From Branchiostoma lanceolatum (lineage: Eukaryota): a stretch of DNA of 64,000 nt. Positions 28,193 to 55,364 of the stretch are shown piece by piece (positions within the stretch are counted from its first letter, which is position 1; every line of letters starts with the position of its first letter). The notes under the pieces are model-generated. The model saw only the letters and a list, made by a program, of their open reading frames with translations, had not been told where the DNA came from and ran no database searches. The stretch spans positions 9,172,596-9,236,595 of the forward strand of contig NC_089740.1 in the NCBI RefSeq assembly GCF_035083965.1, read 5' to 3'. The translations under genes were made by a program, and so were the position numbers.

Positions 28193-28822
28193 CTGCAACA
28201 ACAGCGATAAGGTACAATCGGCTCCGTCCCTGAGGCGTCACAAAGATGTGTTGATTTCGTAGACCAAATAATACGTGACTAATAAACCTGGTTTGTAGTC
28301 TCTCCCAGGTCTGTAGGTTGGGTTTCCTGTGCAATTTTAGCTTGTATCTGGCGTTACCAATATCTACATAATAAAAGTCTGGCTGCTTTACTAAGAAAAT
28401 CCACTTTCTTTAAGGCTTACCTGTTCGACGTCAAAGACGGTATCTCACTGGACTGTATGCGCCAAATTACGCTCGCCTAGCAACTTTAAATTTGCGAATT
28501 TTAGCCGATTTTTCCTTGCGTTCACGCTGCCTTGCGACGCACTGTGGAAATACGTGACCTCTACTAATAAAATGGCAAATACAAATCAGATACAAGATGA
28601 CTGGAAACCGACGTGTTGCCACTGAATTAAAACCAAATATACAATGATTAAGATTCATCAAAAATAACTTTGCAGTAATTGTACCGTTTCGCCGATTGCC
28701 ATGTTTTTGAAAATCTTTACACGACAAATCGGCGCCGATATTGGCGAATACTTTGAGCAATTTGTCAGCCCAGTGACCTATCCGTTTAAGAAGTCGCGTA
28801 TTTGCTAATTTGTATTGTGTAC

Positions 28823-28979
28823 CTTCAAGTTGGCTAAATGTCCGGTGAAATTGCGCCATACTCCACGGCATCCATTCCCCTTCATCCGGGCACTTCGCCC
28901 CCGTTAGATCGGAGAAGAAGTAGTCGAGGTACTCTCGGGCACTCTTGAAATATTCGTATTCTTCTTCTTCTGAAGACAT
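28823..28979 (-). CDS. N-methyltransferase gene B (paralog, minus strand) exon 1
   Basis: ATG at 28979 (plus-strand cat 28977-28979). Translates MSSEEEEYEYFKSAREYLDYFFSDLTGAKCPDEGEWMPWSMAQFHRTFSQLEG. Donor GAAG|gtacac. Lies in ORF 28467-28979. Confidence 0.7.
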
Positions 28980-30984
28980 CCTAGCTCTGCCCTTAGATAG
29001 TATTTCTGAATGTGCTGGTGTGTTCCGCCGAAGCTAATTATATTGGCTTTGCAATCCAGGAGCACATGAGGTACGAAGGTCAATATCACGATATACACGA
29101 GAGCTGTATTTGTTTGATGTCTCCTAGTCTTAATTGTAAGATCAAAGAGGCTTAAAAAAGAAATTGATACTAGGATGGGTATGGGGAGGTCATTTCTTGT
29201 CTCTCAATGTCGGATTTTGGTGAGAGAATTTGAAAATGTATCCGACGAGGTATGAACAATTTTTGTGTGGAAAACACTTCAACCTTTTCGCATTGGTGAC
29301 AAAGGTGAAGGTGGCACAAGGACGTTCTAGGCACCGAATGTCAGCATTGACAAATCGTCTCCCTGCGATTTGACATCCTATTGACATTATGGTAAATTCA
29401 GTGAAAGGTTGTTTGGTAGAAATCACGTTGGCGTCGTGCGAGTGGCACTTTTTTTTATTAAAACGACAGCAAGGTTTCTAGTAGTTGCATTTCTTATGTC
29501 AATCGCCAGATGGCGCCATTGAGCAGTAATCTAATGACAATAGTACATACATACATTCATAATACGGATAAACGTTTAATTCTAATCTAACGTCTTTGTA
29601 AAAGTATGAGCCAAACGAATACCACTATATTGATTGGCCCCTTAAAAGACAAGTTGGCAATAGATAGGAAAGGCATAAATATTCATATTGACATACTTTG
29701 CATATGGTTGAAAAAATAAACATGCAAACTGTGTACTAATCACTATATCTAAAAACATAAATAAACACGCAAAACCTTAACATATCTCTTAAAAGCAAGG
29801 TAAAAAAAGAAACGATTACCATAGATTTTCACGGATACTAATTCATAAAAGTGATTACAATATACTAAGTACTAGGATACAATCTCTTCAACAAACAATA
29901 GATACTGTAAAAAACACAATCAATGTAACACAACTACAGCTCTGTGATTTAAAACAATAAGACAATAATAAAACAGGTGATCATAGCTACTTTCATTGTG
30001 ATTGGATGCATTCATCTTTTTAGATGGGGATGTAAAGCCGGCAGCTCCATGATTGGATAAGCTTCGGGTATAAAACCTCTGCAGGTAAAAGAACCCAACA
30101 CACTTATAGGGGTGACCTAGCGTGCTTGGTAGAAAAAGCAAGCCATAGCAAATCTTCATTAAACTAATACTAGCTACTTGAAAATCCATCATGCTTGATC
30201 TCAGTTGAAGATGGCTGCTTTACCTCATTTACTACCTTGGAACTACTATATATATATTTGAAGAGCAGAGTATGTACAGTCTTCAGATCTGTTTGTATCA
30301 TTTGTTTTCTACCCAGTATCCAAAATGCAAGATGGGAGTACATGCATAAAGCTGTATCACCACTTTGGAAAAGTATGTGGAGAGGGAGAGAAATATTCTG
30401 CAGTTGTTGGCAAATCCAATGGCTTTAAGGTAGCAGAACACAGTTTTCGGCCTATGGGGATTTCTATAGTTAAGGGCCACAAAGGGCTTCGACGCGGTAA
30501 AAATGATAGTGCGGTGCACTTGAGAAATACAAAAAATGAATATGTTTGAGTTTAGGGTACAACCTACAAATAACTCAAAAACTAAAAAATTCTGTTGGCG
30601 TATTGGCTCCTCATGCCCACTTTGAAACAGCGCTCTGCAAGAGGTCACTGAACTGCAGCCGACTCACCCTGAGAGGCGGTTGCATAAGAAGGCGCATTTA
30701 CAAACAAAGCAAAAAAAGTCCACCATCCAAATCCTACAGTCTAAAAGCCGACATATTTCTACACCACACAGCACAGTTTACACATGGATGCCTCTCACAT
30801 GCGACTTTCTGCCTAGTCTTCAAGAGTTTGGGCTGCACTACATTTTGTACCCGTGTCATAGCCCCCGGGGGGCACAGAGAAATACTGTGTTCTGCGACCT
30901 TAACTTGACTTTGGCATGGTATGTTTTGGACTTTGTTGCCAGCACCTTATCACCAGCGAGAAAAAGGTTGCTAACAAATTTTGG

Positions 30985-31100
30985 TGTCATTTCTTTCTTT
31001 CTTTGTGTGTGTGTGGACAGTATAACTTGAGAACCTGAGGATGGATCTGTATGACATTTACCATGTAGGTAAGTGTCAGCAAAATGAAGGACAAGTCTGC
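30985..31100. repeat. Dispersed SINE-like repeat, copy 3
   Basis: Contains ctttctttgtgtgtgtgtggacagtataacttgagaacctgaggatggatctgtatgacatttaccatgtaggtaagtgtcagcaaaatgaagg, homologous to copy 2. Confidence 0.5.
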
Positions 31101-31186
31101 CCCTACCAGCTTTCTATGCTTAGCTACAGCAGAACTCATGTTCTCAAGACATTTTGGATTTTCTTCATCTGCATACTTGGGACAAG

Positions 31187-32818
31187 TTAAAAGGTCCCAT
31201 CCATATCTTTTCTCCTATTGTGAGTGTTCATGTGGCGGTTCAGTTCAAAGGTGCGCTTAAAGCCAGCCTGGCAGAGTTCGCACTTGAAGGGCCGTTCCTC
31301 CGTGTGGCGAAACAGGTTGTGCTGCGACAGGTTACTCTTCGTTTTGAATGAGATCTGACACATCTCGCACCGAAACGGCTTGTCACTGATCTCCCGCTGT
31401 TCAGTAAAAGACGTACCGGCAATTACAACCGATGGGGGCGTGTCGGATGAACCCTGTGCTGCCGTGAAGTTTAGGCTGTGGGAAACGAGATGGCGGTCGA
31501 GCTCGTAGCTGCGGCGGAAAGCTGCCGGGCAGATGTGGCACTTGAAGGGCTGCATGCAGTTGTGTACGGAGAGTCGATGCTGCTGTAGAGAGCTCTGGCT
31601 GGAAAACAGGACTCCGCATTCGTCACACAGAACAATGGTGCCCTGCATCACATCTGCTTGGACGTCTGCGCTTGCTCCCAGTGTGGTCTGCAAAAGGACA
31701 TGTTGGTTTCCAACAAAGCGGTCATGTGATGCCAAACTTCTAGAACCCTCACGTGACACCTCTCCTGTTACATCAGGCCGCCGGTTGTCTTCTGACCCCT
31801 GGCCTTCAACCTCATCCAAGATGGCAGTGCTGTCTGATGTGCAAGAGAGCTCCAGTGACCCCATTGTGTCCTCCTGTGAGGTCGTTCTGTTGCCATGGTG
31901 ACCTTGGTTGCTATGGCCATCCTCTACATCAGAGGACAACCTTGCAGAAGGTGACCCACTGCTTGTCTTGAATCGTTTTGTTCTGAGGGAAGCTTGTTGG
32001 CTTCCTTCTTCTGAGTTCCGATTCTCTTGCGATCTGAACGTGGACGTGAATGCCCCATCGTTTTCTTGAGAGCAGGATGTGACTTCATTGTCTTCGTTTT
32101 CTATCTTCACCACAACGGCAGACCTGACGCCATCCCTGTCTCTTTGAGAGAGCCTGTTGGGATTAAAGGTCAACTCCCTGTTGTCATTAGAACATGGACT
32201 CCACTCTGATGTTTCACGTATGACAGCCTGTCTGCTAGGCTCAGGCGAGAAGCTCATAGGAATCCTTGGTGCATTTTTCGTGCCGGATTGACCGGAACTT
32301 GGACGGGATTCGCTCTGTGTAGACTGTCGGTTCTCGGATACGTTCAAGGTAGATGATGTGGCTGCTTTTGCTGTGCATTCTTGTAGCATTGTGCTTAACA
32401 CCGGGTAGCCAAGCTTGCACCTACTGTCGTCTTGCGACCCACTAGAAGGGGACACAGACCCCAAAGGGCTTGACACGCTCGAGCTCTGCCTGTTACCAAC
32501 GTCGCTACTTGTCGAGTGAACGTTTCTCGCTCCGCTAACCTCGGGCGGTGGGCGCAGGGCTGCAGCCAGAAACGTACTGCAGTTGTTGAGTATGTCCATC
32601 ACTTGGAGAAAGTTTGCCGCGTTGTTTGTCTCCAGGGCGTTCTCAATGGTGAGGTTGAGCTCGGAGGTGTACACGAAGTCTAACACGACAGCTACACCCT
32701 GTGGAGTCAGGCCTGGTAGTGTGATCTTGTCGGTTGTATTGTTGGAGAGGACAGATGCGAAGTAGCCGGAGGAGCCACAGAGTATACACTTGTGAGCCCA
32801 GAAGACATAGTCCTGTAC
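31187..32818 (-). CDS. BTB/POZ zinc-finger protein, large terminal exon (rest of BTB domain, Ser-rich linker, 4 C2H2 fingers, stop)
   Basis: Acceptor caatcattcag|GTA, phase 0. Translates VQDYVFWAHKCILCGSSGYFASVLSNNTTDKITLPGLTPQGVAVVLDFVYTSELNLTIENALETNNAANFLQVMDILNN.., which continues the BTB fold. Four C2H2 fingers are at the C-terminus: CDECGVLFSSQSSLQQHRLSVH, FKCHICPAAFRRSYELDRHLVSH, FRCEMCQISFKTKSNLSQHNLFRH, FKCELCQAGFKRTFELNRHMNTH. Contains ORF 31187-32686. Confidence 0.7.
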   Translation of the reverse strand, partial: VQDYVFWAHKCILCGSSGYFASVLSNNTTDKITLPGLTPQGVAVVLDFVYTSELNLTIENALETNNAANFLQVMDILNNCSTFLAAALRPPPEVSGARNVHSTSSDVGNRQSSSVSSPLGSVSPSSGSQDDSRCKLGYPVLSTMLQECTAKAATSSTLNVSENRQSTQSESRPSSGQSGTKNAPRIPMSFSPEPSRQAVIRETSEWSPCSNDNRELTFNPNRLSQRDRDGVRSAVVVKIENEDNEVTSCSQENDGAFTSTFRSQENRNSEEGSQQASLRTKRFKTSSGSPSARLSSDVEDGHSNQGHHGNRTTSQEDTMGSLELSCTSDSTAILDEVEGQGSEDNRRPDVTGEVSREGSRSLASHDRFVGNQHVLLQTTLGASADVQADVMQGTIVLCDECGVLFSSQSSLQQHRLSVHNCMQPFKCHICPAAFRRSYELDRHLVSHSLNFTAAQGSSDTPPSVVIAGTSFTEQREISDKPFRCEMCQISFKTKSNLSQHNLFRHTEERPFKCELCQAGFKRTFELNRHMNTHNRRKDMDGTF

Positions 32819-33561
32819 CTGAATGATTGGATGAATGAATGAACTTTATTGTACAACAGTTGTACAAGGTAAACAGTATGGCAAGTTCTGGCATCAGTTG
32901 GTGCTTATTTCAACAACCATACAATGTTTTTATCTCTTTCCAGTGCCAAATTATTTTTTTTGTGGTAGGAATAACATTTTCTTTATTACAGTAACAAAAT
33001 ATATCAAAAAGTTGAGTGTAAGTCTATTCATGTACGGTACCTGTACATTTCAGTATTTTGGAACTGGACCTAGATAATTTTAGCCCAACCTCGACTAATT
33101 CATGCTCCTATCGGCTGGCCCGACAGTTACTAATCCCAACTTAGTCCCCACCAGCAAAAGTTTGCGTAAACACAGGCTAATCTTCGCACTATACTGACTA
33201 ATGGCACACATCCCTGGTGTGAGTAGTAAGTGGTAATTTGGTACTCTCCAAGCAGAGGTTGGATTTTGGCTTGTTTTTGACATCAACTTACTAGTAGGCT
33301 ATTTTGTTGGGCTAAATCTATTTTGTCCTAGTTTATTTCGGCCGCCAGGTTTATTAGGTATTGATTGATGCTTCTGTCTGCTTGCTCTAGGTTGCTGTTG
33401 GCGGTTGAAAGAAACCTTTGACCAAATATCAAGCCTGACAAAAAACAACTAGTTATAGAATAATTATTGTCAAAAACAAGACAGACCCTAACCTCTGCTT
33501 GGAGAGTGGTAATTTGGGATCTTTCTTATAAGCTGTGATTGGCTGATTGAATGATGCGTAC

Positions 33562-33669
33562 CTGGATTGCGATGTCGCAGAGTTGGTGCCCCGCTCGGCG
33601 CTGCTGGTTCAGCCGGCGCAGCACGTTCTGGGCGTGGTCGGGGTACAGGTGTTTCTGGTGTGTTGCCAT
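33562..33669 (-). CDS. BTB/POZ zinc-finger protein, first coding exon (N-terminal part of BTB domain)
   Basis: ATG at 33669 (plus-strand cat 33667-33669). Translates MATHQKHLYPDHAQNVLRRLNQQRRAGHQLCDIAIQ. Donor CAG|gtacgc, phase 0. Coordinates are good to about 1 nt. Confidence 0.6.
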
Positions 33670-33827
33670 GGTGATCACTGGACATCAGTTTTATTGCACC
33701 TGCAAATTATGTAAACACTTTTACTATCAATATTGAGGGTTACCAAGTACTGTACAGGGGAGATGAAGCCTGGGATGTTCTAAACAATATTTGAGCGCAA
33801 ATACCTACCCTTATTAATAACTGGTGA

Positions 33828-33843
33828 TATCACACACTCTCAC

Positions 33844-33875
<32 letters not shown>

Positions 33876-33892
33876 TTACACACAAATGCAAT
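33828..33892. repeat. (CA)n microsatellite
   Basis: cacactctcacacacacacacacacacacaaacacacacacacttacacacaaa. Confidence 0.8.
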
Positions 33893-35527
33893 TTTTGCAT
33901 GTTTGGAAAATACATGTATGTCGTGTAAAAAGAACATGCCCCTCCCACCATACTCACTGCACTGACTTACCCTGCAACATTTTGGGAAAAGACTTTTGTT
34001 TTGCATCCAAGTGAGATTCTTTGATTCCTGAAAACCATCCAGACACGACTCATACCCTGTAGTCTGAGTACTCAGTGCCTGCTATATGCTGTATGCATGT
34101 GCGACTGCGACCAACAGAAAATACAGGCCTACAAGGATTTGCCGCCCCCCTCCCCCTTTCATTCAAAACAACAACCAGAACGTCACCAAATATACTCCGA
34201 TTCCTGACAAACAAGCGTCCTCACTGTGTTAGATGTTCCAGTTCCTCTTCATAGAAGTGACCTCCACTGCAAAGATTATGCAACGGGCAACCTGTAATAC
34301 AAAATTTCGATATTATAACGAAGCAAGGAAATTTGGACAGATTTACAGAAAGGCTTTCAGGGTCAAAGGTGAAAGGAATATACCAAAACCACTGAGTTGG
34401 GGGGAATCTCGAGAGAAAATGTTAGGTGACCACACTAGATACTTCATTTAAGACAAAGTGCTAGGAGTAGAGAAAATCTTAATCTATCGTTGTAAAACGG
34501 TTAATATCAATATCGTGTGATGCACAGAAGAAAATACTGGTCACAAGAAGGCAAATGGGCTATACCAATCGTTGAAGGGGGGTAAACATTCATTTATTTA
34601 CCAACCTGATGACACTATTAAGGATGTTGTTCACTTATAAGTTTACCACGAAACAATTTGAAACGGTTGCAAGCGGCAATTTTCGCCATTTTTGCTCAAT
34701 TTTTATCGTAACGTTATGATTATATGAACTGTATTGTTTAATCCATTTTCATGATAAGTTTGGCATATAGTCTGCGGTATATTAGGACTGAGCACGGAGG
34801 CAATATTAGGAAATTAAGGCCATTGATTAAAGCTGATTGAAAAATTACAGATTCCATAAAAACTTAATCACATTGATTAGTGTGCATGCTAAATTGTCAC
34901 GAAAGCATGGCAACCTAGATTAGCGTCATGGTAAGCATCTATACATAAACTAGAGTTCCACAAGCTCTAGCTTTATATCCTAGTCTGTATGACGCAAACT
35001 CCGGGTACCCGGTTACGGGCGGCTGCATGACTTAAAAAGCGCGATTAAAATCAGGCTATCAATTTATAACCTTTCCAGACTGATTTCACCTGAATAAGGT
35101 CTTCATGTACAACCTACGTATCCCAAATTGTTCGAAGTATGACATTTTATCATAACAAAGAATATTGAAGTATTTCTTCAGCAATTGTAAATGAAACCCG
35201 GCCACAGTATTCATGTTATATATATGCCTGATAATGTTCAAGAATGAAAGTCTTAGACTAGTAATACACCACTAATGGATTATTTTCTGCTTGATTATGC
35301 AAATTAGGTCTTCATTTGTATAATCTATATTTGTCGATGTTTCTCTCTTTCTCAATTATATTGTTTTGTTCAATGCTCTTTTGTTTCAACGTAACTGTTA
35401 ACTCTATTACAACAAGTCGTAGAAAACTCTGTTACAACTTGTAAAAGAAATATATTATGACCATAGTGGATACTCCTACCTGTTCTATTCTTGCAGTTCA
35501 TCCAGTGATATCAAGTCAGTATGTACT

Positions 35528-36016
35528 ATGTTAAGGTCCAGAATTACCAATATGTATATTCAAACTTTCTGTCACAATTTGAGTATTGATACTGGCAAGC
35601 TAAGGTTTTATAAGACATGCAAAACAACTTATTCCATGGAAAAATATTTAGAATTAGATAACTTCAATTTACGCTCTGCAATTAGCAAAATTAGAATTGG
35701 TGCCTATCCCCTTAAACTTGAAAAAGGGCGGTACAAGCCTGAACTTACCTGTGTGCAAAAGAATTTGTATATAATATACTGCATGTCAAACAAGGTGGAA
35801 GACGAAACACATTTTATGTCAAGTTGCCCACTCTACGACCACGAAAGAAATGAGCTCTTTAAAGAGGCCACCACATTTCATCCTAATTTCTCCACGTTTT
35901 CAGACGAAAAGAAAACTACTCTCCTCTTAACATCACAAAAACCACATATCAACGTTACAGAAAAAGTGGGATCATTCGTCTTCCACTGTCTCGGGAAAAG
36001 AAGTCGAACCCAATAG
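35528..36016 (+). mobile_element. Non-LTR retrotransposon (LINE) ORF2 C-terminal fragment
   Basis: ORF 35528-36016 contains ..CMSNKVEDETHFMSSCPLYDHERNELF.., a C-x(n)-H-x4-C-type Cys/His knuckle typical of the 3' end of LINE ORF2. No RT core is present in the window, so this is a truncated relic. Confidence 0.35.
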
Positions 36017-37169
36017 GTTAGAACCTAGTGGCAATAGTTAAGAATAGAGTAGTCATATGTTATACTGTTCATTATTGTCTGTCTGTCCACACCGTGTTAC
36101 ATGTACATGTACTTGCAATTAGCCTACGGGCAGGAATTTGCAATAAACTTTCATTGTTTCGTGTGTAAACATTTAACATCTGAACAAACGGCAACGAAAA
36201 CATAACCTTCTTGGCCGGCAAATGTAAAAGAAATATACAAAATGTAACAGGATGCGTTTGCATGAAGACTTTAGCTACAAATGTAGGGCGCCGGCATTTT
36301 TGCGTTTACCGTTTGGAGATTGAAGTTAAGACTTTAGGCTACTAATTCAACTGTGTGATCATACGTTAGCAATAGCTTATTCCAGTGAGATCATTTGGTA
36401 ATATGGTTTAATATACGCACACAACCCAATTCTAATACATAACGTCAACGTTCAGTATCGTTGTCATGCAAGAGTTATTGTTATTAAATTGGTACAAAGA
36501 ACGTTAATACACAGTGATGTACAGAACTGATTTGATAAACTGCATTCACGTCACAATGAAATTATATTTTCTGTGATCTATTTCCTTTACTGAGAGATCC
36601 CTGAAAACACGTTCAAAGAAGAATTATCGCCTAAATTGTTTGCTGCAACATTTGATTACCAAAGCGGATCAAATTTAGAATAACCTTTCGGAACATCAGT
36701 CAGTGACGTATTATTAATTATGGAACTATATTGATCGCCGCAAACTAACAACATAAGATAAACATATGGTCCTTTGATATGATCACGTTTCTAATAAGCT
36801 TTCAGAACTACATACGCATGTGTACTCTGCCTGTGGGCTGTGGAGAGAGGAAGCGGCGACAGCTTGTGCACCAGGGCCAATGAAGTATGGTATATGACCT
36901 GATTTAAAAACTAACGCACGCACTTTTAAGCAAATTCTAGTGTTCCCAAAGACGAAACATCAAAAGGAAGCAGATGTGGCATGGTGTATCATATCACTTG
37001 CCAAAGTCAGAATTGTTGAACAGAGGTCCTTGTAGCCTGGTCACCAGTCTCTATAGCTACGGGTCGAATAGAAGTATTTTCCTGGGCCCAGTCTGCTATA
37101 TTGACACGTTTCTGTTAGTGTCATAAAATAGCGATAATCGGTTCTATTCAGTGAACGAAGTTGACGGAA

Positions 37170-37814
37170 TCTACGGAGGAGAGCTGACCAAAGACTAACA
37201 GCAACGATGAGATATTTGAACGTTGAAAACGTAAACAACAGAGACGGGGGCGACATAGGTTATCTGGTACCCGCTGCTGTGGTAGTCGGTTTCATTTTGT
37301 GAACAAGGTTGATGGAGATAAGAGAGGAGAGCAGACCAAAGACTGGCAGCAACGATGATACATTTAAACGCTGATGAATCGTCCCCATTACTTTACAGCT
37401 AACAATATGTCTTAGAGCTGGTTATTCATAAACGCATGGATAGCCCATTAGGACCTTCGTCATCAGAGAAAAAAGCAGACCAAAGACTGGAAGCAATGAT
37501 GATACATTTGAACGATGAGACGGTCCCTTAAAACATCGTCATTCAGATTTCGTTAGCAGCCAATCACGAACAGCTTACCATGTGTCTTAGAGAAATTAGG
37601 ACCTTCGTCATCAGAAAGTAGAGCCGACGAAAGACTGGCAGCAATGTTTAGACATTTGAACGATGAGACGGTCCCTTATAAAACATCGCCATTCAGATTT
37701 GTTTCGTAGCCAATCACGAACAGCTTACTTTTCGTCTTAGAGCTGGTTGTTCGTAGACGTATAAATAGTGCATTAGGACCTTCGTCACCCGAAAACAGAA
37801 GACTGGCAGCAACG
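37170..37814 (+). repeat. Tandem array (about 145 bp unit, 4-5 copies) of promoter/5'-end-like modules ending in the real start of the prokineticin-like gene
   Basis: Units begin at about 37190, 37337, 37480, 37625 and 37797. Each has gac[c/g]aaagactgg[c/a]agcaa[c/t]gatgat, then a CCAAT motif (agccaatcacgaacagcttac) and a TATA-like motif (cccttaTAAAAcatcg). The last unit carries the ATGATG of exon 1. Confidence 0.65.
37700..37814 (+). promoter_or_regulatory. Core promoter of the prokineticin-like gene (CCAAT about 37710, TATAAATA 37760-37767)
   Basis: agCCAATcacgaa and acgTATAAATAgtg lie 50-105 bp upstream of the ATG at 37815. The same module recurs in the upstream tandem repeats. Confidence 0.4.
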
Positions 37815-37907
37815 ATGATGGTGGACCAAGCTTGGCGTGCGGCCGCGGCAACGATTCTTCTTACTCAGCTGGTTCTACAAGGATCGGGAGCTATCGTCAT
37901 GACTGGG
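37815..37907 (+). CDS. prokineticin/Bv8 (AVIT)-like peptide gene exon 1 (signal peptide plus AIVMTG)
   Basis: ATGATG at 37815 and TATAAATA at 37760. Translates MMVDQAWRAAAATILLTQLVLQGSG|AIVMTG, a hydrophobic signal peptide followed by an AVITGA-like motif. Donor GGG|gtaggt, phase 0. Confidence 0.55.
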
Positions 37908-39871
37908 GTAGGTTTGCGCTGTTTCATACACCACTCCCCAACTTCATCAATCATTCTCTTCGTCCCTAGAGTAATATTCAAAGCATAAATCCTAGTCTTT
38001 CACGGGATAAATTGTATTCCGCTACCTTTCTTACTCATACAATAATAACATCATCTTCGTTCCCAGTATAATATTCAAGGCAGTAAACCATATTTACTAG
38101 ACCAATAGTCTTGTTCCAAGTCTTTCTTGTCTCCCGTCACTCTGTTCTTGTTCATGTTGTATCAGGTGTGCGTCTCTTTTCCTTCCGGATCTAGGAAACC
38201 TTGTGTCAAAATGGTATCTAAAACATTTAGTCGACAAGCGATGCTTGTTATTGACGATATATCCTAGATGTGCATGTCATATATATATACAAGCGTAACA
38301 GCCTTGAATAGATCACGAATATCATTTCTTAAATTATGTATATTCTCGGATCGAAACGCCCCAATATGTTACACATAGAGAAGATTTGTAACATACAACA
38401 CATACAATACCGTCAATCAGTCTGTTGTTAGACCAAAAAATGTAATAAAATGATCTACTGAACAAGCAAGCAATCATATATGACACGTTTGAAATTTTCC
38501 TGGTCGTGGATTTGGTAAAGTGGTTCATTCACCATACAGTTGTTTACAATATGTTTGCCAACTTTCAATGGTACGGTTATCAGTAATTTCTCGTCAGGGT
38601 CTGTGTTTGCCCGATATTGAAATCTAGATGAAATATACTGAAATGGCCATTCAGTCTATGACATTTATTCATCAAAAATTCCCTACATTCCTTGTTCATT
38701 AGAAATTCTCAAAATTCTTTGTTATTTACAAATTCCTTGTGCCACATATTCATCTATTAGATGGGTTGGGTATACTCCAAGGCAATATGTCTTCACATGT
38801 GCCAACACGTTGATCCCATTGAACAGGATGCTTAAGTTAAGAAGTTATTGACTGTAAGGAGCCATTGACGTCTATCTGAACACCTCTTAAACATAATGGA
38901 CGTCAACAAAGTGCTGTTAATGCGAAGCCCATTGCGGCTGGAGTGGTCTTGTGTGAAGAAGCGTTAATGACTACAATCACTAACGTCCTACGCAAGGTCA
39001 TTATTGATGAACATAATTTCACGTTGCTCAAGAAGACGTGGGATTTTATAATCACCACTTTGATTGCAATTTACGACAATTTATGGCAATTTACGTCCAA
39101 TTCATATTCCAACACGTCATCGTTTCAATCCTCTATCTACATGATATTGTGACGCTTGGTTGAAATCACATTTACATCAATGTTTTTGCGTACGAGTACG
39201 GCGACGTAATTCTATTATTGTTCAAAAAAGGGCCTGCCTACCCCGAGGCATTACCTACAAACTTAGTAATACGATCTATTCATCTTTCCTTAATGTCATC
39301 TCCTACTCTGGTCAGAGTAATTCGAATACATTAAGACGCTTTGAAAATCTATAATGAAGCTCATGATTGAATCTATACCAAGTTATCTGAGAATTAACAG
39401 ACGTTTAAGATGACGTCCGGCGGCATCCTTATTCGGTGATCTAAGGAAACTGTTTTCATTCATATTTATAGAATATAGAACGCAGGACTCTTACTTATGT
39501 ACTGTATAGAAATGAATAAAAACTTCCAACAAGACATTCTTTTCTGGAAAATTGTAATGCATTTTGTAAACTTTGCTTTCGTTAATTCGAATACTCAACA
39601 AACTTTCAAGTAACGCCTTGGCCCTCTTAGAAAAATGACGCACTCACTTCAGTACCACGGGAAAGCAAGGGATTTTTTTTAGCCAGCGGTCACTACGGAG
39701 GCTGATACTCGTTGTTAGCAAGGGATTTGTTTTGAGCCAGCTGTCACTACGGAGGCTGGTACTCAGGCTATTTCAGTACTGGGTCAATGCAAATGACTTT
39801 ATACACGTTAAGATGTACTAGTATATCTATCAAGCCTCTTTATGATTTTATCATTTCTCACACCTATACAG

Positions 39872-40017
39872 GTGTGCCAAAATGATGTGGAGTGCATGGC
39901 AGGGCGAGGTGAAGGGTCATGCTGCGCTTCCTTCGTCAAATCCGGGATACTTTCAGGGATTCCTATCTGCAAACCGCCTGCAGGGGAAGGAGATGACTGT
40001 CACCTCATCCTTGAGGC
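39872..40017 (+). CDS. prokineticin/Bv8-like gene exon 2 (Cys 1-6)
   Basis: Acceptor cacctatacag|GTG and proposed donor GAGGC|gttagt, phase 2. Translates VCQNDVECMAGRGEGSCCASFVKSGILSGIPICKPPAGEGDDCHLILE (compare Bv8/PROK [36 protein letters not shown]). Lies in ORF 39842-40132. Confidence 0.7.
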
Positions 40018-40909
40018 GTTAGTTCTCCTTTTTCTGTTTGATATGCACTTGAACATATTAAAAACTATACATGTAGATGGGGTAAGAAGCAGGGTAAGAC
40101 TTTTTACGCCGAAGTGCGGTAATACGTTTTAGCTCCGTCTACATACTATGTTGTTGACATGCCGAGTGCTTTATTTATGTTTCCTTACACAAAATAAACA
40201 ACTAGATAAGATCTCTTACGTTTCAATAGACTTCAGAGCTGGTAGAAACAGTAAATTATCAAATTTGAAATTGTCTGACAGCTGGCTGAATTGAGGAGAC
40301 TATTAATTCACAGGGAGGAATTGCTTTTGTGTTAGTCTCTTTAACGGTCTGTGTTTTCGCAGTTATATGTTTTTTATATACTAGATACGTTCACCGTAGA
40401 GTGACAGGAAGTGACACATGTTATGTTGATCAAAACCTTATTTACATAATAAACGAACCACATTCAAACACAACGATAAGTATTGCTATCGAAACGATCT
40501 ACGATAAGTATTGCTATCGAAATATTTCACATATGAGAGTATGAAATATTTGAAAGGCCTGTATCAAAGTTGAATTACTAGTACAATTACCAGCAACACA
40601 AGTATTTGGACTTACCCAACTTATCGACTGATCAACCCAAGTCTTTATCAAGTGTCTCTACAATCCATTGTGATCTCTGTTATGTGACGTTATTGTATTT
40701 TCATTGGAATTGCAACAGTGCAATACACGTGGGACACAGGCAGCTATTGCTGGTGTCGTAACCTACACACATAGACGTTTTTTTACACTTGGCTGGAGTG
40801 GGAAAAGTCGACCTTATTGTGTCGGAGATTGCAGTTATCTTTAATACAGAAGACTTCTACCAACACAGATGGACTTTCAAGTGAAGTTGTTTGTGTTTTG
40901 TTTCCACAG

Positions 40910-41036
40910 CTTTGTCCCGTACCCGCACGACAGCCCGCGGTACTACTGGCAGTGTCCCTGCGGGCCGGGTTTGACCTGTCTGCCCGTCAAACGCGGGGAC
41001 GTCATCGGCAAATGCTGGAGGCCAAGACGTGGCTGA
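40910..41036 (+). CDS. prokineticin/Bv8-like gene exon 3 (Cys 7-10, stop)
   Basis: Acceptor tgttttgtttccacag|C, phase 2. Translates AFVPYPHDSPRYYWQCPCGPGLTCLPVKRGDVIGKCWRPRRG then TGA at 41034-41036 (compare PROK ..[22 protein letters not shown]..C). This frame is not in the ORF track because it is shorter than 60 aa. Confidence 0.65.
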
Positions 41037-42440: not shown

Positions 42441-43242
42441 ATTAACCTTGCCCTGCTTTCATAACTCGCTTGGTTCAAGAGCTAACGCTGATCGGTATGC
42501 TTATCGCAATGTTTATGTTATATTTTCAGATATAACGTCAGCCATCATGATTATGATAGTGGTTCGAAAAGTTATCCCAACACATGTAGTGTTCTTGTAT
42601 TCTGTGCAACATCCCCATTAACTTGATATGGGGCGTATCATCATCCTTCAAGCCAAGCGACATTTTTCGCACATCATTTAGATAGCCAGGGCTGTGTGAC
42701 AGCCTGCATGAACTATGGAAAGTCATCTATATAGAATAAAGTTAAATCCTGAATAATGAAATTGTCTGGCAAAGGCTTTTCTTTGTATTCATTTATTTGA
42801 AAACGAAATTTGATAGCTGCACAAATGCCGTCATAAGTGTTTGAAAGAACACCATCAGACTTCTCCTAGCATAATGCGTAGGTAAGTTGATCTACACGGC
42901 TCAATATAACAATAGAACCCTTAGATGAACCTCTTCATGGATACACATGGTTTTCTACGATCAGGTTATACAGCTAGGACTAGATTGATACTATGCTCTC
43001 TGTACACAGCCAATAACATTTACCTTCCAAAGTTTCTGTAATTCTTCCACAACCTTCCTCAAGGCAAAACTGAGTGGATCTACTGATAGGTGCAGAGGGA
43101 CTACCGAAACGATGGCAAGTGATATGTATTGGTCGTGTACTAAAATATTAATATCCATGCAGTGATCTACCAAACGGAAAGCACTATTCACAGATGTAGG
43201 ACTATTAATGAGTTGTAAGTAGCTAATGGTTCAACTACATGT

Positions 43243-43598
43243 TCAAGCGATGAGGGAGTATGCAATCATCATGGGTATCGCGAGAAACAGCGAGAAGAGG
43301 GACGAGATTTGAGAAGCGCCCCCTGTATATCCGTTCACCTCTGCCTCTGTGGTGTTGTGGCAGAAGTACCACATGTTCTCCACGTACTTTGTGAACTCTG
43401 AACCCTCGGGGTAGCCGTTGTTCCTGACCAGCTGTTTGAAGAAAACGGATGAAGCCTTCGGGTAGCGGGTGCGGGTGGGGTCGTTGAAGTCGACGTAGTG
43501 GAGACCGAATCGCTCGGAGTAGCCGGACAGCCACTCGAAGTTGTCCAGCAGGGACCAGGCGGTGTAGGCCTTCACCTTGACGTTGTCCACGTTGCTAG
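43243..43598 (-). CDS. GH1 copy 1 exon 10 (terminal; GPI-anchor-like tail; includes stop)
   Basis: Acceptor cactaccag|CT. Translates [118 protein letters not shown] then stop at 43243-43245. Lies in ORF 43243-43590. Confidence 0.85.
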
Positions 43599-44093
43599 CT
43601 GGTAGTGTAATGCAAAAACAACAATAGTTCCTTTGAAACTTTTTGATAATACTACATGCGGCAGACGGTACATTAGAAATAAAGTTTGGGAGTTAAAATA
43701 GTATATTATATCAACACAGCCAAAGCAAAACGTGCGAAATGTCTAAAAGAATCAAATTTTGCATGCATGTAGTTTAATGTATTCCAAAAAAATTATCTAA
43801 ATCTCTATTAAGATGCTTTCTGATGGTCAAAAGGAAACTCCCGCATAGATAAGATTTCAAAATATTTCAAATGATTTCATAGATGCCACTTATTGAAGAT
43901 GTAACACAATGCATTTGTACTTGTATCGAAGTTGCAGTATAAAGTATGTACATGCATCCTAATAGACCAATGATATGACACATGGTATTACAGGGCTTTC
44001 GTAAAGCATTTGTTCTATTCACAGTTGCTTTCTCTCTAAACCTAGCTCCTCAGATGATTACACTTAATTGAAAAGACGACTACGAACATGTAC

Positions 44094-44179
44094 CTTTCAT
44101 GACTTCATTGGTGTACATCATGTAGTAGCAGATCCTCTCCATATCCATCATGATGGCTGGGTCCTGGTCATGGTCAGAC
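44094..44179 (-). CDS. GH1 copy 1 exon 9
   Basis: Acceptor cactacag|G and donor GAAAG|gtacat. Translates RSDHDQDPAIMMDMERICYYMMYTNEVMK. Confidence 0.75.
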
Positions 44180-44649
44180 CTGTAGTGTGTCGTTGAAAAC
44201 ATACATTAAAACTCAATACGTATATCATCAAAGTCTGATTATAATGCAGTGTAAGGTATCAGGTTAAGGAATTGGCTCATGATTGGGGCTGCTTATACAT
44301 GTATGTATATATGTGATAGATTTTAGGAGGCGAAGAGTATCATTTCCATCCATATGGTTCTGGATCAACTTCTTGTCTACGCCGAATAACAGTTGCTCAA
44401 ACGTCTTGTCAATTTGGACGAACAATGCAAATTTGATTGCCTACCCTCCTTGAAGAGCTTGTACGGAAAGGCGTGCCCAAAGTAGAAACTGTCATAACAG
44501 GATACGTGGCATACTTAATTCAAAATTGTACCAAATACCAACATACAAATTCTGGCATGATACATCCACCACGGAGGTAAAAAGCTAAAGATTGAATTTC
44601 ACAATATGAAGGCTCCAAGTAGATCCTTGTTTTACGAAGAGCTGCTCAC

Positions 44650-44818
44650 CTTCCGTTTTCAGTGACGTAGATTTCCGGATCTCCGTACTCTTCCTTGATA
44701 AAGCCGAGGAGATTCCGGATTCCCCACGGAACGACGTACAGCCAGCTGGAGGCAGCACGCGGCCAGTCAGGCGCATGCCCAGTCCCCACATCTTTGTCTG
44801 TGTCGTAGTTGGGGTTTT
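44650..44818 (-). CDS. GH1 copy 1 exon 8 (nucleophile Glu in YVTENG)
   Basis: Acceptor tttgcacag|AA and donor GGAAG|gtgagc. Translates ENPNYDTDKDVGTGHAPDWPRAASSWLYVVPWGIRNLLGFIKEEYGDPEIYVTENG. Lies in ORF 44646-44840. Confidence 0.85.
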
Positions 44819-45108
44819 CTGTGCAAATGAAAAATGACAATCAAGAATCATGTTCACATTGAATATTGAAGGTTTTGTCCACACATAGCCTAGCCTAGGT
44901 GTTATCCTATTTCAGAGGAGCGAACTCTAACTGAAATAGACTGGCTTCTCACAACCCAGCGCCAACCTTAAATGGGAGTAGTGTAAAAGGTACTAAATGA
45001 ATTACTGGCTGGCTTAATGGCTCTCAACTGACAGGCCGACATGGTCTACGGGCTGAATGGATGAGCAGGCGAGCAGATGTATACCTCGATGACGCGTTTT
45101 TGACCTAC

Positions 45109-45268
45109 CTATTGGAGAACAGCAGGCGTCGGTCACCTCCACTGTGGTGTAGTGGTTCAGTCCGAAGAAGTCTCCGGTGCCGCTGATGGAGAGCTTCTGT
45201 TCCGGGGTGAACTCCGGGAGACGGGACGTGGTCCTCCCCTCCTCCTGAGCTTTCCTCGCCATCGTTGT
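45109..45268 (-). CDS. GH1 copy 1 exon 7
   Basis: Acceptor gcacgacatag|ACA and donor ATAG|gtaggt. Translates [53 protein letters not shown]. Lies in ORF 45014-45262. Confidence 0.8.
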
Positions 45269-45489
45269 CTATGTCGTGCAAAAAACACATTTGCCATAAA
45301 TACATTGTATTGAATGCTATTTGCAAGTAACATGAAAAAGACGAACAAATAACGAAGAACAGAAGCATCAACCACGAGAAAATAATGAGGCCGCTGCTTT
45401 AGACCGTTTTGGCAAAGACTAAAGCAGCCAACGTTTAAGATTTTAATATACAGGTACAAATTATTACAATTGATGAGAACATGTCGTAC

Positions 45490-45630
45490 CTTCATGACTT
45501 CCGGATAGTCGCCGTTCTTGTAGATCGGATGAGCGAACCAGCCCAGGAAGAACTGGACGTATCGGAGCGCTGCGTCAGCATCAGCCGGAGTCTTGGGTGT
45601 TCCCCAGTCACAGTTCAGGGTGATACCAAC
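45490..45630 (-). CDS. GH1 copy 1 exon 6
   Basis: Acceptor ctcttaag|GTT and donor ATGAAG|gtacga. Translates [47 protein letters not shown] (compare [28 protein letters not shown]). Lies within ORF 45157-46002. Confidence 0.85.
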
Positions 45631-45699
45631 CTTAAGAGGAAAACAGCACATACGTTCAGATAGTACAAGCGCATACAGAAAGCCACGAAGCAGTGTTCT

Positions 45700-45910
45700 G
45701 TGGGACATCTCTCTCTCTCTATCTCTCCCTCTCCCTCTCTCTCTCTCGCTCCCTCTCTCTCCCTCTCTTTCTCTCTTTTCTCTCTCCTCTCTCTTGCTTC
45801 TCTCTCTCTCGCTTCTCTCTCTCTCGCTTCTCTCTCTCTCGCTTCTCTCTCTCTCGCTTCTCTCTCGCTTCTCTCTCGCTTCTCTCTCTTTTCTCCCTCT
45901 CTTTCTCACT
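45700..45910. repeat. (CT)n / (CGCTTCTCTCTCTCT)n compound microsatellite in GH1 copy 1 intron 6
   Basis: ctctctctctatctctccctctccc...cgcttctctctctctcgcttctctctctct... It generates the spurious [10 protein letters not shown] and LSLSLS ORFs on both strands. Confidence 0.85.
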
Positions 45911-46075
45911 GTCTTCTCATCTCTCTTTTGATATATTAGATAGATAAACAGAGAGACTGGCATAGATAGCTTTGAATTTGGAGAGTAATAGACAAGGTAC
46001 AATATCTCCTTCTATGTTCACCAACAACCCCTATTCTATCAAAGGTGTGATATGTAGACAGCGATGGTATTTTAC

Positions 46076-46203
46076 CTGTCCACCCTGTGCGGCTCTGAAC
46101 TCGTCGTCGTATATGTGGTAGGCCTTGGCGTGAGACAGGATGATGTTATGGGCTGCTATGTACTGTCCTTCGGCCATGTCGTTATGCTGGGGGGCAAAGT
46201 TAC
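46076..46203 (-). CDS. GH1 copy 1 exon 5
   Basis: Acceptor gttctag|GT and donor GGACAG|gtaaaa. Translates GNFAPQHNDMAEGQYIAAHNIILSHAKAYHIYDDEFRAAQGGQ. Lies in ORF 46031-46225. Confidence 0.85.
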
Positions 46204-46324
46204 CTAGAACGACACAGCAAGACATTCAATAAAACACGTCAATCTACAAAGGTCTTTTCTAGAGTTCCTTAGTAGAAAATTATCTTTTTTTCATAAATAA
46301 AATATTGACACGACAGGATATCAT

Positions 46325-46409
46325 GACATTGCAGGTAGATACAAGTAGATAGATGGATAGATAGATAGATAGATAGATAGATAGACAGACAGATAGATAG
46401 ATAGATAGG

Positions 46410-46485
<76 letters not shown>

Positions 46486-46525
46486 CGGAGAGATAGACGG
46501 AGAGATAGACGGAGAAATAGACGGA
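46325..46525. repeat. (GATA)n microsatellite, about 45 units, GH1 copy 1 intron 4 (absent from copy 2)
   Basis: agatagatagatagatagacagacagatagatag... It generates the spurious [11 protein letters not shown] ORFs. Confidence 0.85.
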
Positions 46526-46582
46526 GAAATAATGGATACAATGCGATGTTATACGCATCTGAAAATAGATGAAAGTACCCAC

Positions 46583-46748
46583 CAATGCCATATCCGAGCC
46601 AGGCCGTGATCCAGGGTTCGTTGAATGTGATCCAGTACTTGACGCGATCCCCGAAGTTCTGGTAACAGAAGCGAGCGTAGTCTCCGAATAGATCGTGGAT
46701 CACGGTAGTGTTGGTGGTGTGGTTGTTGAGGAAGCCTCCGTACCTGTC
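46583..46748 (-). CDS. GH1 copy 1 exon 4 (acid/base catalytic Glu in TFNEP)
   Basis: Acceptor ttccag|GAC and donor ATTG|gtgggt. Translates [55 protein letters not shown]. Lies in ORF 46269-46703. Confidence 0.85.
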
Positions 46749-47388
46749 CTGGAATGGTGAAAATATAGATAATCAAATACAAGATGGTTCAATGACAGTG
46801 CGTGCCTTTAGAGAGTTTCTTTCTTGCAAGTAAAGCATCCGGGGTAATTCTGCAAATAAAAGTATGAAAAACGAAAATAGTGCAAATGCCTAAAATCGAT
46901 CGCTGTTGATCTTCAAAACCCTCCTCAGTCGGGCTGAATGCGCTCGGCAAACCCTCCCGCATCAGCCCTGCTCCTCTCCTGTCTGTTTCTGGCTCCTGGT
47001 GATGTTGCTCACACTTGTTCTAATTGATTAGTGAGCTAGCGTTTAAGGCACAGACAGCCGTTATTTTGTTCTGAACTAAAAGTAGCGATGTCAGACGTAA
47101 CCTGATTGGCTGATAGATTCTCAACGATATTTAAGCTTTCCGGTTTTCCAAGATAAGCTTCTGGCAATCCTCTGATGATGTTTGGTGGTGACGTCACCAG
47201 GAGCCAGAAACAGGCCAGAAAAGAGCATGGCTGATGTGGGAGGGTTTGCCGAGCGCATTCGGTGCTACTGAGGAGGGTAATCTTCAATCAAGTAAAGTTA
47301 GAACTTGATCTCTTTTAGATATTCTACTATCCCCTCAATTATTACTTACTATGGAATATTAATATGGATGGGTTTAAGATCAAAGTAC

Positions 47389-47516
47389 CTGTAGAACCTG
47401 CGGGAGATCCCAGTGGAACAGTGTCACCATCGGTTGGATGTCGTTGACTATCAACTCGTCGATGAGGGCGTTGTAGTAGCGGACGCCATCTTGGTTCACT
47501 CCATCTTGTTGCTCAC
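47389..47516 (-). CDS. GH1 copy 1 exon 3
   Basis: Acceptor ctcacag|GT and donor CAG|gtactt. Translates [43 protein letters not shown]. Lies in ORF 47380-47700. Confidence 0.85.
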
Positions 47517-48026
47517 CTGTGAGATGAAGTAAGTAAATGAGAAATTCTTGCCATTTGTGATAGGTCTTTGATTGAGACAACGTGACACATTGTGTATTTT
47601 GAGATAATATGTGACGGAAACAATGTATAAAACATAAAAAGTCAGGTCTACATAGCTGAGAAAGATACGGGAAAGCCATGTTGGTGACCATTGACCTCAC
47701 TCTAAAGCGTATGCGATAAAGATTGTAATCTAACTATTTTGGCTTAATAACTTCCACTCGTTAGGTTGGTGGAGAGCTATCAGAATCAAGTGTCCACCCC
47801 AACTTAATTAATCAATACTGCACAATTTTACCCTCACTCAGACTAGATATGTTTCCGTATGTTTGCGATTATGATGTTGTTGATGAAGACTATAGCTGTT
47901 GTGAGTCATTGAATGGCCGTTCATAAGTTGCTGTAGAGATTTATTACCAGCCTATTCGAATCATTAACTTTGTCCAAACTTTAGTGCCTATTTTTCGCCA
48001 CGCAGCATGCTATAGGGGAATCTTAC

Positions 48027-48140
48027 CTGTTGGGAATAGCCTGGGCCATGAGATCGAGAAGCGGTAATACTTCAGCCCCATCTGCTTCATCAGTGCTACA
48101 TCCTCCGGGTACTTGTGGTAGCTGTCACAGGCAACATCCC
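48027..48140 (-). CDS. GH1 copy 1 exon 2
   Basis: Acceptor tcttctccag|GG and donor ACAG|gtaaga. Translates [38 protein letters not shown]. Confidence 0.8.
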
Positions 48141-50785
48141 CTGGAGAAGACACACAATACCATTCATATTAGAAAGAGTGTCTACACTAAGCTGGTAAGA
48201 TATGGCTGGCCAACCTGGGATATTAATAAACACTGTGATGATGAGAATAGGAAACCTGAATTGTTGCTCTACATATGATTGTTAGGGGTTCTTCACAGCA
48301 CGGCGCTGCTGACATGGTGAGCTTTATGAGGTACGTTAAAAGGTTTGTATGTTTCATCTTCTAAGATTGGTCCAAGAGTTCAATTTTAGAAAATAAACTT
48401 ATTAAGTGTTAGTACATGTACAATGTAGGATTTTTGCTTTCGAAATCAGTAAAACTTTTCAAAAGTAAAGCAAGATCAAAGCTTAGCAATAAATGCGTAA
48501 CGTCACTCTCGTTGATACATGATTCAGAACCAAATGCGTACTTTTAAAAAGATGATAAATGACCTCAACACCGGTACCCTACACTTACACCCACTGCGTA
48601 CAGTATATACAGCGACTGAGATGATTCTTATATGTTTAGTTTCTTAGTTAAATCATCCAAACATTTTCATGCTAGCTCACGACTTGTACATTACACATTG
48701 CACGTCCAGCTTATCTTATCACGGATTAAAAATTGCGTAAAATCAATCAAGATGGCGTCATATCAAGGGATTTTGGACTCTAGTTTAAACTCTATTCAGT
48801 TCAAATTTGTTACCCAGTCAGTAGAAGGCTTGTCTTCCATGACAGGCAACATCGCCTAGTGTAAGACAACAACAACTATTATATACGTAACAGGCAACAT
48901 TCTTGTACGCTTAGTTTCTGAGTTTCATTTCCCTCAAATTCTTCATGATAGTTCACTCAATGCGCATAAGTCTAAGTTATCTGATCAGGGATAAATTATT
49001 GCGTAAAACCAACCAAGATGGCGTCATCCCGAAGGATTTTGAACTTTGGATACTAATTCAAACTCAAGTCAGGTAAAAATTCGTTGCCCGGCCAGTAGAG
49101 TGCTTGTCTTCTGGGAGGGGGGCACGAAGACGTGTAAACAATGGCATCGCAGTAACAACACGTTCCTAATCAGGTCTGTCAAACGGCGTCGTTTATCTCA
49201 AAGGAACTCGTGTTTAACTCCATCATTAATGCGTTTATTAACAAGGGGGCGTGTCCTTGGCACGTTAGCAGCTAAAGGTTGTATAATAGGGTCATTGTGC
49301 AAGTGTACACATGATAGCGGGGACGCGGACCTTGACACCGTATGACACGTTCCCAGGAAACTTTATACAGAAGTGTAGCTGTGTAATTGACACATATTCA
49401 TGTATTTCACTGCGAAAGGTGTGAGTAATTGGTCTTTATCTGTTTAAGCCAAACATCCTCAAAGCCTATTTACCCGACTCTCGATAAGTGGGTTGTTTTT
49501 CACTAATGTAAACACAAGCCGCTCCGCGCAGGTTTAAAATCCTTTATGCAACCCTACGTGGTTTAATCGTACCGCGATTCATCGATCTCAGCTGTTTATT
49601 GTGTCATATCTCTTGTACAAAATGCACGTGGCAATGCACATGTTCAAATTCGGGTCTGTCGACCATTGGAATCATTGATTTTGGTGATTACGTAAGTCAT
49701 TCAGCATCATTCAGCATGATGTAACATTGCTCTCTCACTAGACCATGAAAAAGCTTTGTCATTTCAACTCAGCACTTTCCTTTGTTCTCAAAATTATCGT
49801 GGACGTGTCACATTGTTCCCTGGTTGAAGTCTTTACTGGACATACTGTAAATGCAGAAATGTGCCGGGATTACATTTGGCGGGGGGGGGGGCGGTAGAAA
49901 TCTTCGGTGGTTTTGAGTTCATGCTTGAAAGAATAGTATCGCTACAGTAACACAATGGAACGGCTTTTCGCAGTGGGTTTAAGTTCGCGATAAAGAGTTC
50001 ACCGCAAAAAACAGCGAAAATAAAACCATGGCGAACATTTCTGCTTTTACAGTATATGCTTCTCCATTTCTCTCAGCACGTTTCCAGTGGTATAGTAGGT
50101 GTGTTGACACGTATGCAACGTTCCATCTACAACAAGGCCGGCAATGAACCCGTCAAACTGTCAAGATTGGAGCTTTTTCACAGCTAGCCTTTCAAGAATA
50201 AACTGCTGCTGAAAAGAACTACAGCCAATGCTAACTGTTGTACGATATAACAAAGGGACAGGGCGAGGGGGAGGGGGTGAGAAAAGATTGACAGAGGTGG
50301 AAAGAGAAAACGGGTTCATAGGTGCTCATTGTTCTTAAACAGCTTTTTAAAACATATGACTTAAGCTAGAGGTGTCTTGCTTGATCTCCTACTTTTACCG
50401 TCTCTGAATCTAGTTTGGTTAAACATCCTACAAACAGGTAAACTTTCCATAGCTTTCTCAAGGCCGTATGTTGCCAATCCACTCTCTTTTACATGGTATT
50501 GGAAGGCGGAGCCCAGCCTGGAATCCAGACCTATTATGATAGCTCCCGAGTCTCGGGAGCTCTAATAGGTCTGGATTCCAGGCTAGGCGGAGCCCATCCG
50601 TCTCGTTCCATCACCTTCTACCTCCTCAACCGAAGTCAGGTACCCATTGTTACCCCTAGGTGGAGTCAGGTACCCATTTACACCTGAGGTTTACATGTAA
50701 GTCATGTTAAGTGCCTTTCTCATTGACAATTGTGCATTGACAACATACGATAACTTTCAAAACAGTGGACGAAGAAGACTTTTAC

Positions 50786-53499: not shown

Positions 53500-53585
53500 C
53501 TTTCATGACCTCATTGGTGTACATCATGTAGTAGCAGATCCTCTCCATGTCCATCATGATGGCTGGGTCCTGGTCATGGTCAGAC
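53500..53585 (-). CDS. GH1 copy 2 exon 9
   Basis: Translates RSDHDQDPAIMMDMERICYYMMYTNEVMK. Lies in ORF 53486-53668. Acceptor tgctag|G and donor GAAAG|gtacat. Confidence 0.8.
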
Positions 53586-55215: not shown

Positions 55216-55289
55216 CTATAGAGTAAAACAGAACATTAGATCAAATAGTTCGATGCACTAACAGAAAGCCACGAAGCATTGTTTTGTGG

Positions 55290-55316
55290 GCCGTCTCTCT
55301 CTCTCTCTCTCTCTCT

Positions 55317-55364
<48 letters not shown>

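Follow-up and report, generated by a model that had tools for sequence, protein, structure and literature searches.

A prokineticin-family gene with an AVIT-like motif in the lancelet Branchiostoma lanceolatum

Does this locus of the lancelet Branchiostoma lanceolatum encode a prokineticin of the chordate type, and how much of the vertebrate AVITGA motif is retained in it? The question was raised by a stretch of 64,000 nucleotides (NCBI RefSeq assembly GCF_035083965.1, contig NC_089740.1, positions 9,172,596 to 9,236,595 of the forward strand), the whole of which is called the window here. At window positions 37815 to 41036 of the plus strand an interpretation of the bare sequence, the sequence-only reading, had recognized a three-exon gene for a secreted peptide of about 121 amino acids (aa) resembling prokineticin and Bv8. 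The locus holds in all probability a genuine, functional three-exon prokineticin-family gene of B. lanceolatum, with a secreted peptide as the predicted product. The gene was known before: a protein identical over all 121 aa had already been annotated under a prokineticin name and was found deposited as XP_066269997.1 ('prokineticin Bm8-f-like'), as CAH1251863.1 ('PROK1') and in UniProt as A0A8J9ZDU9, thus RefSeq, GenBank and UniProt name it prokineticin-like. Literature searches yielded receptor and general neuropeptide surveys only, no study dedicated to a lancelet prokineticin ligand was found. The gene is sound but ordinary and held nothing unexpected; the ligand expansion and the variation of the N-terminal motif are its only modestly interesting aspects.

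The coding sequence (CDS) of 366 nucleotides (nt) is joined from three exons at GT-AG borders, and the spliced translation was exactly the protein string that had been proposed. The coding part of exon 1 (37815..37907, residues 1-31) comprises a putative signal peptide (about residues 1-25 or 1-26) and (A)IVMTG, and ends with ATGACTGGG at the donor GGG/gtaggt in phase 0. The precursor N-terminus is signal-peptide-like, with a basic Arg8 and a hydrophobic core A9-L21, a helix in the AlphaFold2 model. Intron 1 (37908..39871, 1964 bp) leads to the acceptor tatacag/ of exon 2 (39872..40017, 146 nt), which runs from V32 to the first two bases of the A80 codon, carries Cys1-Cys6 and ends with CCTTGAGGC at the donor GAGGC/gttagt in phase 2. 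After intron 2 (40018..40909, 892 bp) and the acceptor ttccacag/, the coding part of exon 3 (40910..41036) continues from the last base of A80 to G121 and the stop codon TGA (41034-41036); it carries Cys7-Cys10 and encodes also PYP, YYWQCPCG, RGD and the basic tail RPRRG. At this locus the window is about 96.5 % identical to the assembly GCA_927797965.1 and is therefore another haplotype or assembly. Orthologues were present in B. floridae (81 % identity) and B. belcheri (77 % identity, represented by a deposited full-length protein of 122 aa only). The weak donor of exon 2, for which the sequence-only reading had asked for confirmation, did not differ between the two B. lanceolatum haplotypes and B. 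floridae, and the deposited records give the same 121-aa product. Within the 64-kb window, a tblastn search with the protein matched the three exons only and revealed no further paralogue.

The family assignment was clear. The Pfam model Prokineticin (PF06607) matched with an E-value of 9e-14 and 52 bits, far over the gathering cut-off of 21.6, and covered the profile positions 5-90 of 97, while the Pfam models Colipase_C (E=0.12) and MIT-like atracotoxin (E=0.21) reached no significance for the 121-aa protein. Among the solved structures, HMMER gave significant sequence matches to MIT1 (1imt, 2e-8) and Bv8 (2kra, 4e-8) only. After the signal peptide ten cysteines were counted, as predicted, and all ten were invariant columns in an alignment with vertebrate and lancelet members. 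Their order is that of prokineticin, Bv8 and MIT1; three of the spacings given earlier, x13, x10 and x10, were small miscounts for x14, x9 and x11, and the complete spacing reads C-x5-C-x8-CC-x14-C-x9-C-x20-C-x-C-x5-C-x11-C. Human PROK1 and mamba MIT1 have loops of x5, x4, 0, x11, x9, x17, x1, x5 and x9, thus four of the lancelet loops are 2-4 residues longer in an otherwise identical order. The vertebrate PK1/EG-VEGF and PK2, the frog Bv8 and MIT1 share with the lancelet protein a signal peptide, followed by a hydrophobic x-V-x-T-G-x and then Cys1. D36, G44/G46-x-CCA, CH and R-x4-CPC are also common to the lancelet protein and the vertebrate prokineticins, whereas the overall identity to these is merely about 32-38 %.

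A structure was modelled with AlphaFold2 from an alignment of 55 sequences and had a mean predicted local distance difference test score (pLDDT) of 68.5; a run with the three orthologues (58.5) was discarded. The top Foldseek matches of the model in the PDB were MIT1, then Dickkopf-1 and colipase (3s2k_C, 1eth_B, 1lpb_A), with weak E-values of about 0.01-0.06 and TM-scores of 0.4-0.56. The mature peptide would have about 95-96 residues, and by homology five disulfides (I-IV, II-V, III-VI, VII-IX, VIII-X) in a colipase-type fold would be expected. Colipase and the C-terminal domain of Dickkopf, which would share this fold class with the lancelet protein, serve other functions, lack an AVIT-like N-terminus and show no significant sequence-family match to it.

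The exon boundaries had been proposed to fall at the positions known from vertebrate PROK genes. As comparison loci PROK1 of the bird Tinamus guttatus and PROK2 of the frog Nanorana parkeri were solved in the identical way, by a brute-force search over three-exon GT-AG models. In both, exon 1 ends with ..AVITG/ in phase 0, and exon 2 has 126 nt and ends with ..SHK/, again in phase 0. Intron 1 of the lancelet gene follows ..MTG/gt in phase 0 and agrees exactly with both vertebrate loci in position and phase; for mammalian PK1, exon 1 has been described to encode five residues of the mature N-terminus in addition to the signal peptide (PMC8877203). For intron 2 the agreement is limited to the residue: it lies inside the Ala80 codon (Cys6+6, aligned with the vertebrate Lys), one nucleotide earlier and in phase 2 instead of phase 0. 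This phase shift could be a one-nucleotide slide or an effect of the alignment. Vertebrate prokineticin genes have three coding exons as well, with intron 2 in phase 0. The gene confirms that the chordate prokineticin layout of signal peptide, AVIT-like motif at the end of exon 1 and 10-Cys domain is older than the vertebrates.

The closest relatives of the protein were found within the lancelets. An exhaustive search of 1.84 billion representative proteins with a hidden Markov model of the three orthologues gave 40 matches, and members of 30 clusters were examined. Twenty-eight of these clusters held Branchiostoma proteins only, the remaining two were a shark cluster and an ENA sequence. About 24 Branchiostoma clusters outranked the first vertebrate match, a shark 'toxin MIT1-like' protein (1.5e-7). 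At least 24 clusters at 50 % identity make up this large expansion, which is specific to lancelets and includes the present gene. A neighbour-joining tree separated the vertebrate from the lancelet proteins with 100 % bootstrap and placed P0125 and P0124 as closest paralogues. In RefSeq the paralogues bear names like 'prokineticin Bm8-e-like', 'toxin MIT1-like' and 'prokineticin Bo8-like'. At 29-41 % identity they share with the window protein the overall length and the precursor layout, the long Cys2-Cys3 loop C[IM]xx[RK]GxGxCC, CK after Cys5, PYP, R-x-[FY]W-x-CPCG and the terminal [IVL]-G-x-C. They differ in the N-terminal motif, which varies from VVVVTG, MVVTG and LVLTG to AVITG and others; many N-termini fit x-[VI]-[IVLM]-T-G-x-C, and AVITG itself occurs unaltered in P0135. 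Some paralogues have long acidic C-terminal extensions, which the window protein lacks. The multiplication of the ligand family in lancelets runs parallel to the published expansion of the G-protein-coupled receptors (GPCRs) resembling prokineticin receptors (PKRs), of which about 20 are reported for B. floridae (PMC2246102). One paralogue outside the window, P0128 (B. floridae XP_002599266.1), is an older gene model with several tandem copies of the exon 2 start VCKSDSECMAAKGDD; these are either a true exon-fragment amplification or an artefact of assembly or annotation.

In vertebrate peptides the N-terminal AVITG, which occupies the transmembrane site of the receptor, is required together with Trp24 for receptor activation, and the surface-exposed Trp24 is important for receptor affinity (PMC8877203). 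The sequence-only reading had compared a hexapeptide AIVMTG with AVITGA. An AVIT-like motif is present, but in another register. HMMER aligned V28-M-T-G-V-C33 to V2-I-T-G-A-C7 of MIT1 and Bv8, and a MAFFT alignment of vertebrate proteins and 21 lancelet paralogues placed I27-V-M-T-G-V on A-V-I-T-G-A. The codons of I27-V28-M29-T30-G31 (37893..37907) are in register with the vertebrate A-V-I-T-G, and V32, the counterpart of Ala6 in AVITGA, opens exon 2. The description as a half-conserved hexapeptide is of limited significance. The protein fits the looser lancelet pattern x-[VI]-[IVLM]-T-G-x-C, and across the three Branchiostoma species the segment reads AIVMTG, AIIMTG and AIVMTG. Phe52 is the closest aromatic residue to the Trp24 position. 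It lies two residues past CCA in the same loop, is invariant in the three orthologues and is replaced by Trp in many lancelet paralogues.

For the signal peptide we modestly favour a cut after Ala26 over a cut after Gly25, with IVMTGV as predicted N-terminus, because the family register of six residues before Cys1 is thereby restored. A plausible cleavage gives this register in most paralogues, e.g., SKA/MVVTGVC, SQA/MVITGVC, VSG/AVITGVC and IRA/IIITGAC; the family register and the (-3,-1) small-residue rule were the only two criteria for the choice. By analogy to the vertebrates, removal of the signal peptide after Ala26 (less likely after Gly25) would expose the hydrophobic I-V-M-T-G-V directly before Cys1. 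The free N-terminus could then reach into the transmembrane pocket of a rhodopsin-type GPCR resembling the PKRs, and the extracellular loops of the receptor would be touched by the disulfide-rich core (PMC8877203). The altered motif, with Ile and Met in place of Ala and Ile and without Trp24, would most likely tune the choice of the receptor paralogue.

Several observations weigh against such a function. The exact AVITG is absent, as (A)-I-V-M-T-G-V-C keeps V, T and G only, and Trp24 is replaced, with Ile in that alignment column; vertebrate peptides altered at AVITG or Trp24 show a lower or reversed agonism (PMC8877203). Gly25/Ala26 and Ala26/Ile27 both satisfy the (-3,-1) rule, and the six-residue register is not universal, for the nearest paralogue P0124 (SSA/VVVVTGVC) apparently has seven residues before Cys1. 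The structure model is only moderately confident, with Foldseek E-values around 0.01 at best, and secretion, cleavage site and receptor are all predicted from sequence.

Taken together, the first of these points would fit a natural antagonist or biased ligand. With Gly25 at -1 and Gly23 at -3 as an acceptable cleavage site, a cut after Gly25 would leave A-I-V-M-T-G-V-C, one residue beyond the AVITGAC register, as seemingly also in the close paralogue P0124. In the vertebrate system an added or substituted N-terminal residue, or the replacement of Trp24, turns Bv8 and PK into antagonists or partial agonists (PMC8877203), and the lancelet peptide has an altered motif and no Trp24. We regard this explanation as improbable. 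Cleavage after Ala26 is equally acceptable and gives back the family register, the conservation of the N-terminus in three species suits an agonist equally well, and the amphioxus receptors have co-diverged, so that the rules of vertebrate pharmacology need not apply. The preferred reading, a prokineticin-type ligand that would act on a PKR-like receptor, can be extended to the whole family: the ligands, with at least 24 clusters, and the roughly 20 PKR-like GPCRs may have co-expanded into a many-to-many system in which x-V-x-T-G sets the specificity. The present paralogue, with its Ile and Met substitutions, an N-terminus perhaps longer by one residue and no Trp24, would then be a natural selective ligand or an endogenous antagonist. 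This extension is doubtful. If true, it would allow the determinants of prokineticin receptor activation to be tested on variants that occur in nature, and the natural N-terminal variants as such could help to show which features of AVIT a prokineticin receptor reads.

The crustacean astakine reportedly acts on haematopoietic cells by another route. An invertebrate prokineticin- or astakine-type cytokine had been suggested for the lancelet gene, and of these two the prokineticin type stands. The astakines of arthropods are secreted prokineticin-domain cytokines with the same cysteine framework, but they have no AVIT-type N-terminus and bear internal signatures of their own (PMC11521371), whereas the lancelet protein has the chordate-type N-terminal motif. 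The AVIT signature is specific for chordates, and ambulacrarians carry another signature (PMC11521371; PMC6188537). An astakine-type assignment was rejected on account of V-x-T-G directly before Cys1; the peptide is of the chordate prokineticin type because the AVIT-like N-terminus is kept.

The RGD noticed between Cys9 and Cys10 is present (R108-G109-D110, 40992..41000), but it carries little weight. The orthologues do not agree in this tripeptide, for B. lanceolatum and B. floridae share RGD but B. belcheri shows RGE. Among the paralogues the site reads RGG, KGS or RGS, inside a general [RK]-G-x-x-[IVL]-G-x-C. For these reasons the RGD is probably incidental, and a functional integrin motif was rejected as the principal reading. 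The C-termini of the three orthologues (41019-41033 in the window) consist of a basic tail and a final Arg-Gly, RPRRG, GPGRG and RLRRG; a basic tail with a terminal Gly is unlike the vertebrate prokineticins. It is a speculation that this Gly could act as amidation donor.

Lineage-specific expansion is a pattern that is also seen in immune and defence gene families. The large expansion in lancelets resembles these, the colipase fold spans functionally unrelated proteins with Dickkopf and colipase among the fold matches, and RGD occurs in two of the three species; hence the gene could encode an astakine-like or colipase-fold cytokine or defence peptide that acts without a prokineticin-type GPCR, or an RGD integrin ligand. 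Such a function is very improbable. V-x-T-G is encoded by the last codons of exon 1, exactly where the PROK genes of vertebrates have their motif, while astakines are devoid of an AVIT-type N-terminus (PMC11521371), the colipase and atracotoxin models were insignificant (E = 0.12 and 0.21), and the RGD site has RGE in B. belcheri within the general paralogue motif.

The preferred reading as a functional prokineticin-family gene was further examined at the nucleotide level. Between the two B. lanceolatum haplotypes, 6 of the 366 CDS positions are different, each of them by a synonymous change. Against B. floridae, the nonsynonymous divergence (dN) was 0.097 and the synonymous divergence (dS) 0.487, a ratio of 0.20, or 0.17 for the mature part. 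The exons were the only well-conserved islands at the locus in this comparison (exon 2 87.6 %, exon 3 85.3 % identity), and most of the intron sequence was unalignable. The second B. lanceolatum haplotype and B. floridae gave the same three-exon model, with intact open reading frame (ORF) and splice sites, and the ten cysteines and the N-terminal motif are kept in the orthologues. The coding sequence is under purifying selection. That the locus is a decaying or unexpressed paralogue, a pseudogene whose ORF survived by chance, is hardly credible: the donor GTTAGT of exon 2 is off the optimal consensus, but the selection data strongly oppose decay, as do the intact gene in two haplotypes and B. 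floridae, the full-length B. belcheri protein, the retained cysteines and motif and a promoter with CCAAT and TATA motifs.

Upstream of the gene, at 37063..37814 of the plus strand, lies a promoter array in which a unit of about 148 bp is present five times in tandem, in diverged copies. Every unit ends with a copy of the segment AAGACTGGCAGCAACGATGA of the 5' untranslated region (5'UTR) and start codon (five matches, 0 expected by chance). Promoter, 5'UTR and start codon lie in the array (37063-37821). Only the last unit continues into the real ORF, hence the ATGs of the units before it are decoys. In the other B. lanceolatum haplotype the array comprises six copies (locus 9174-10004), a copy-number polymorphism, and B. 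floridae has a related array (locus 9300-10010) with repeated ACGGTCCCTTA and AGCCAATCA motifs. In the last unit, AGCCAATCA contains a putative CCAAT box, assigned by motif (37710..37714, plus strand); unit 4 (37558) and the B. floridae array have the CCAAT motif as well. A candidate TATA box TATAAATA, likewise a motif match, is located 55 bp upstream of the ATG (37760..37767, plus strand) and occurs in the last unit only. An origin of the units from a dispersed repeat or transposon was rejected, as the motif GAVACGGTCCCTTA is confined to the promoter array.

Within intron 1, two blocks (about 38824-38925 and 39036-39125) were kept with B. floridae (locus 10701-11040) at 73-78 % identity, while the other intron 1 sequence was unalignable. 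One block has an invariant GCCATTGACGTC with a TGACGTC resembling the cyclic AMP response element, the other a duplicated CAATTTACG plus TATTCCAACACGT; both blocks are candidate intronic regulatory elements. Further downstream in this intron (39655-39775), inspection by eye showed that about 56 bp are duplicated locally in tandem (AGCAAGGGATTT..AGCCAGC.GTCACTACGGAGGCTG.TACTC). Intron 2 has an indel of about 267 bp between the haplotypes, with the other haplotype being longer (window 40840-40867 versus other locus 13022-13316); overall the haplotypes are about 3.5 % different at the locus. A lone E-box CACGTG in intron 2 (about 40727) equals the chance expectation.

The gene order NNMT-like methyltransferase, BTB zinc finger, PROK and glycoside hydrolase family 1 (GH1) is the same in B. 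floridae. An Rfam scan over the whole 64-kb window found nothing. An ATG-started ORF of 162 aa at 35528-36016 of the plus strand had no Pfam match and may be non-coding or a piece of a degraded element. The end of a methyltransferase gene of the NNMT/PNMT/TEMT type lies at about 28470-29460 of the minus strand, according to a gene call on the matching assembly. It is followed on the same strand by a gene with BTB/POZ and C2H2 zinc-finger domains upstream of PROK (29460-34720, ORF 31187-32686). A part of this gene (31127-32822) had an 82 % alignment to a second site in the other haplotype, probably owing to zinc-finger repeats within the gene. Downstream of PROK, segments related to GH1 (lactase/klotho-like) were located on the minus strand at about 42700-50060, 52460-59570 and 61670-64000. 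They are present two to three times with 80-95 % mutual identity, which suggests a tandem duplication of the GH1 gene, and the ORF 45157-46002 matches the Pfam family Glyco_hydro_1.

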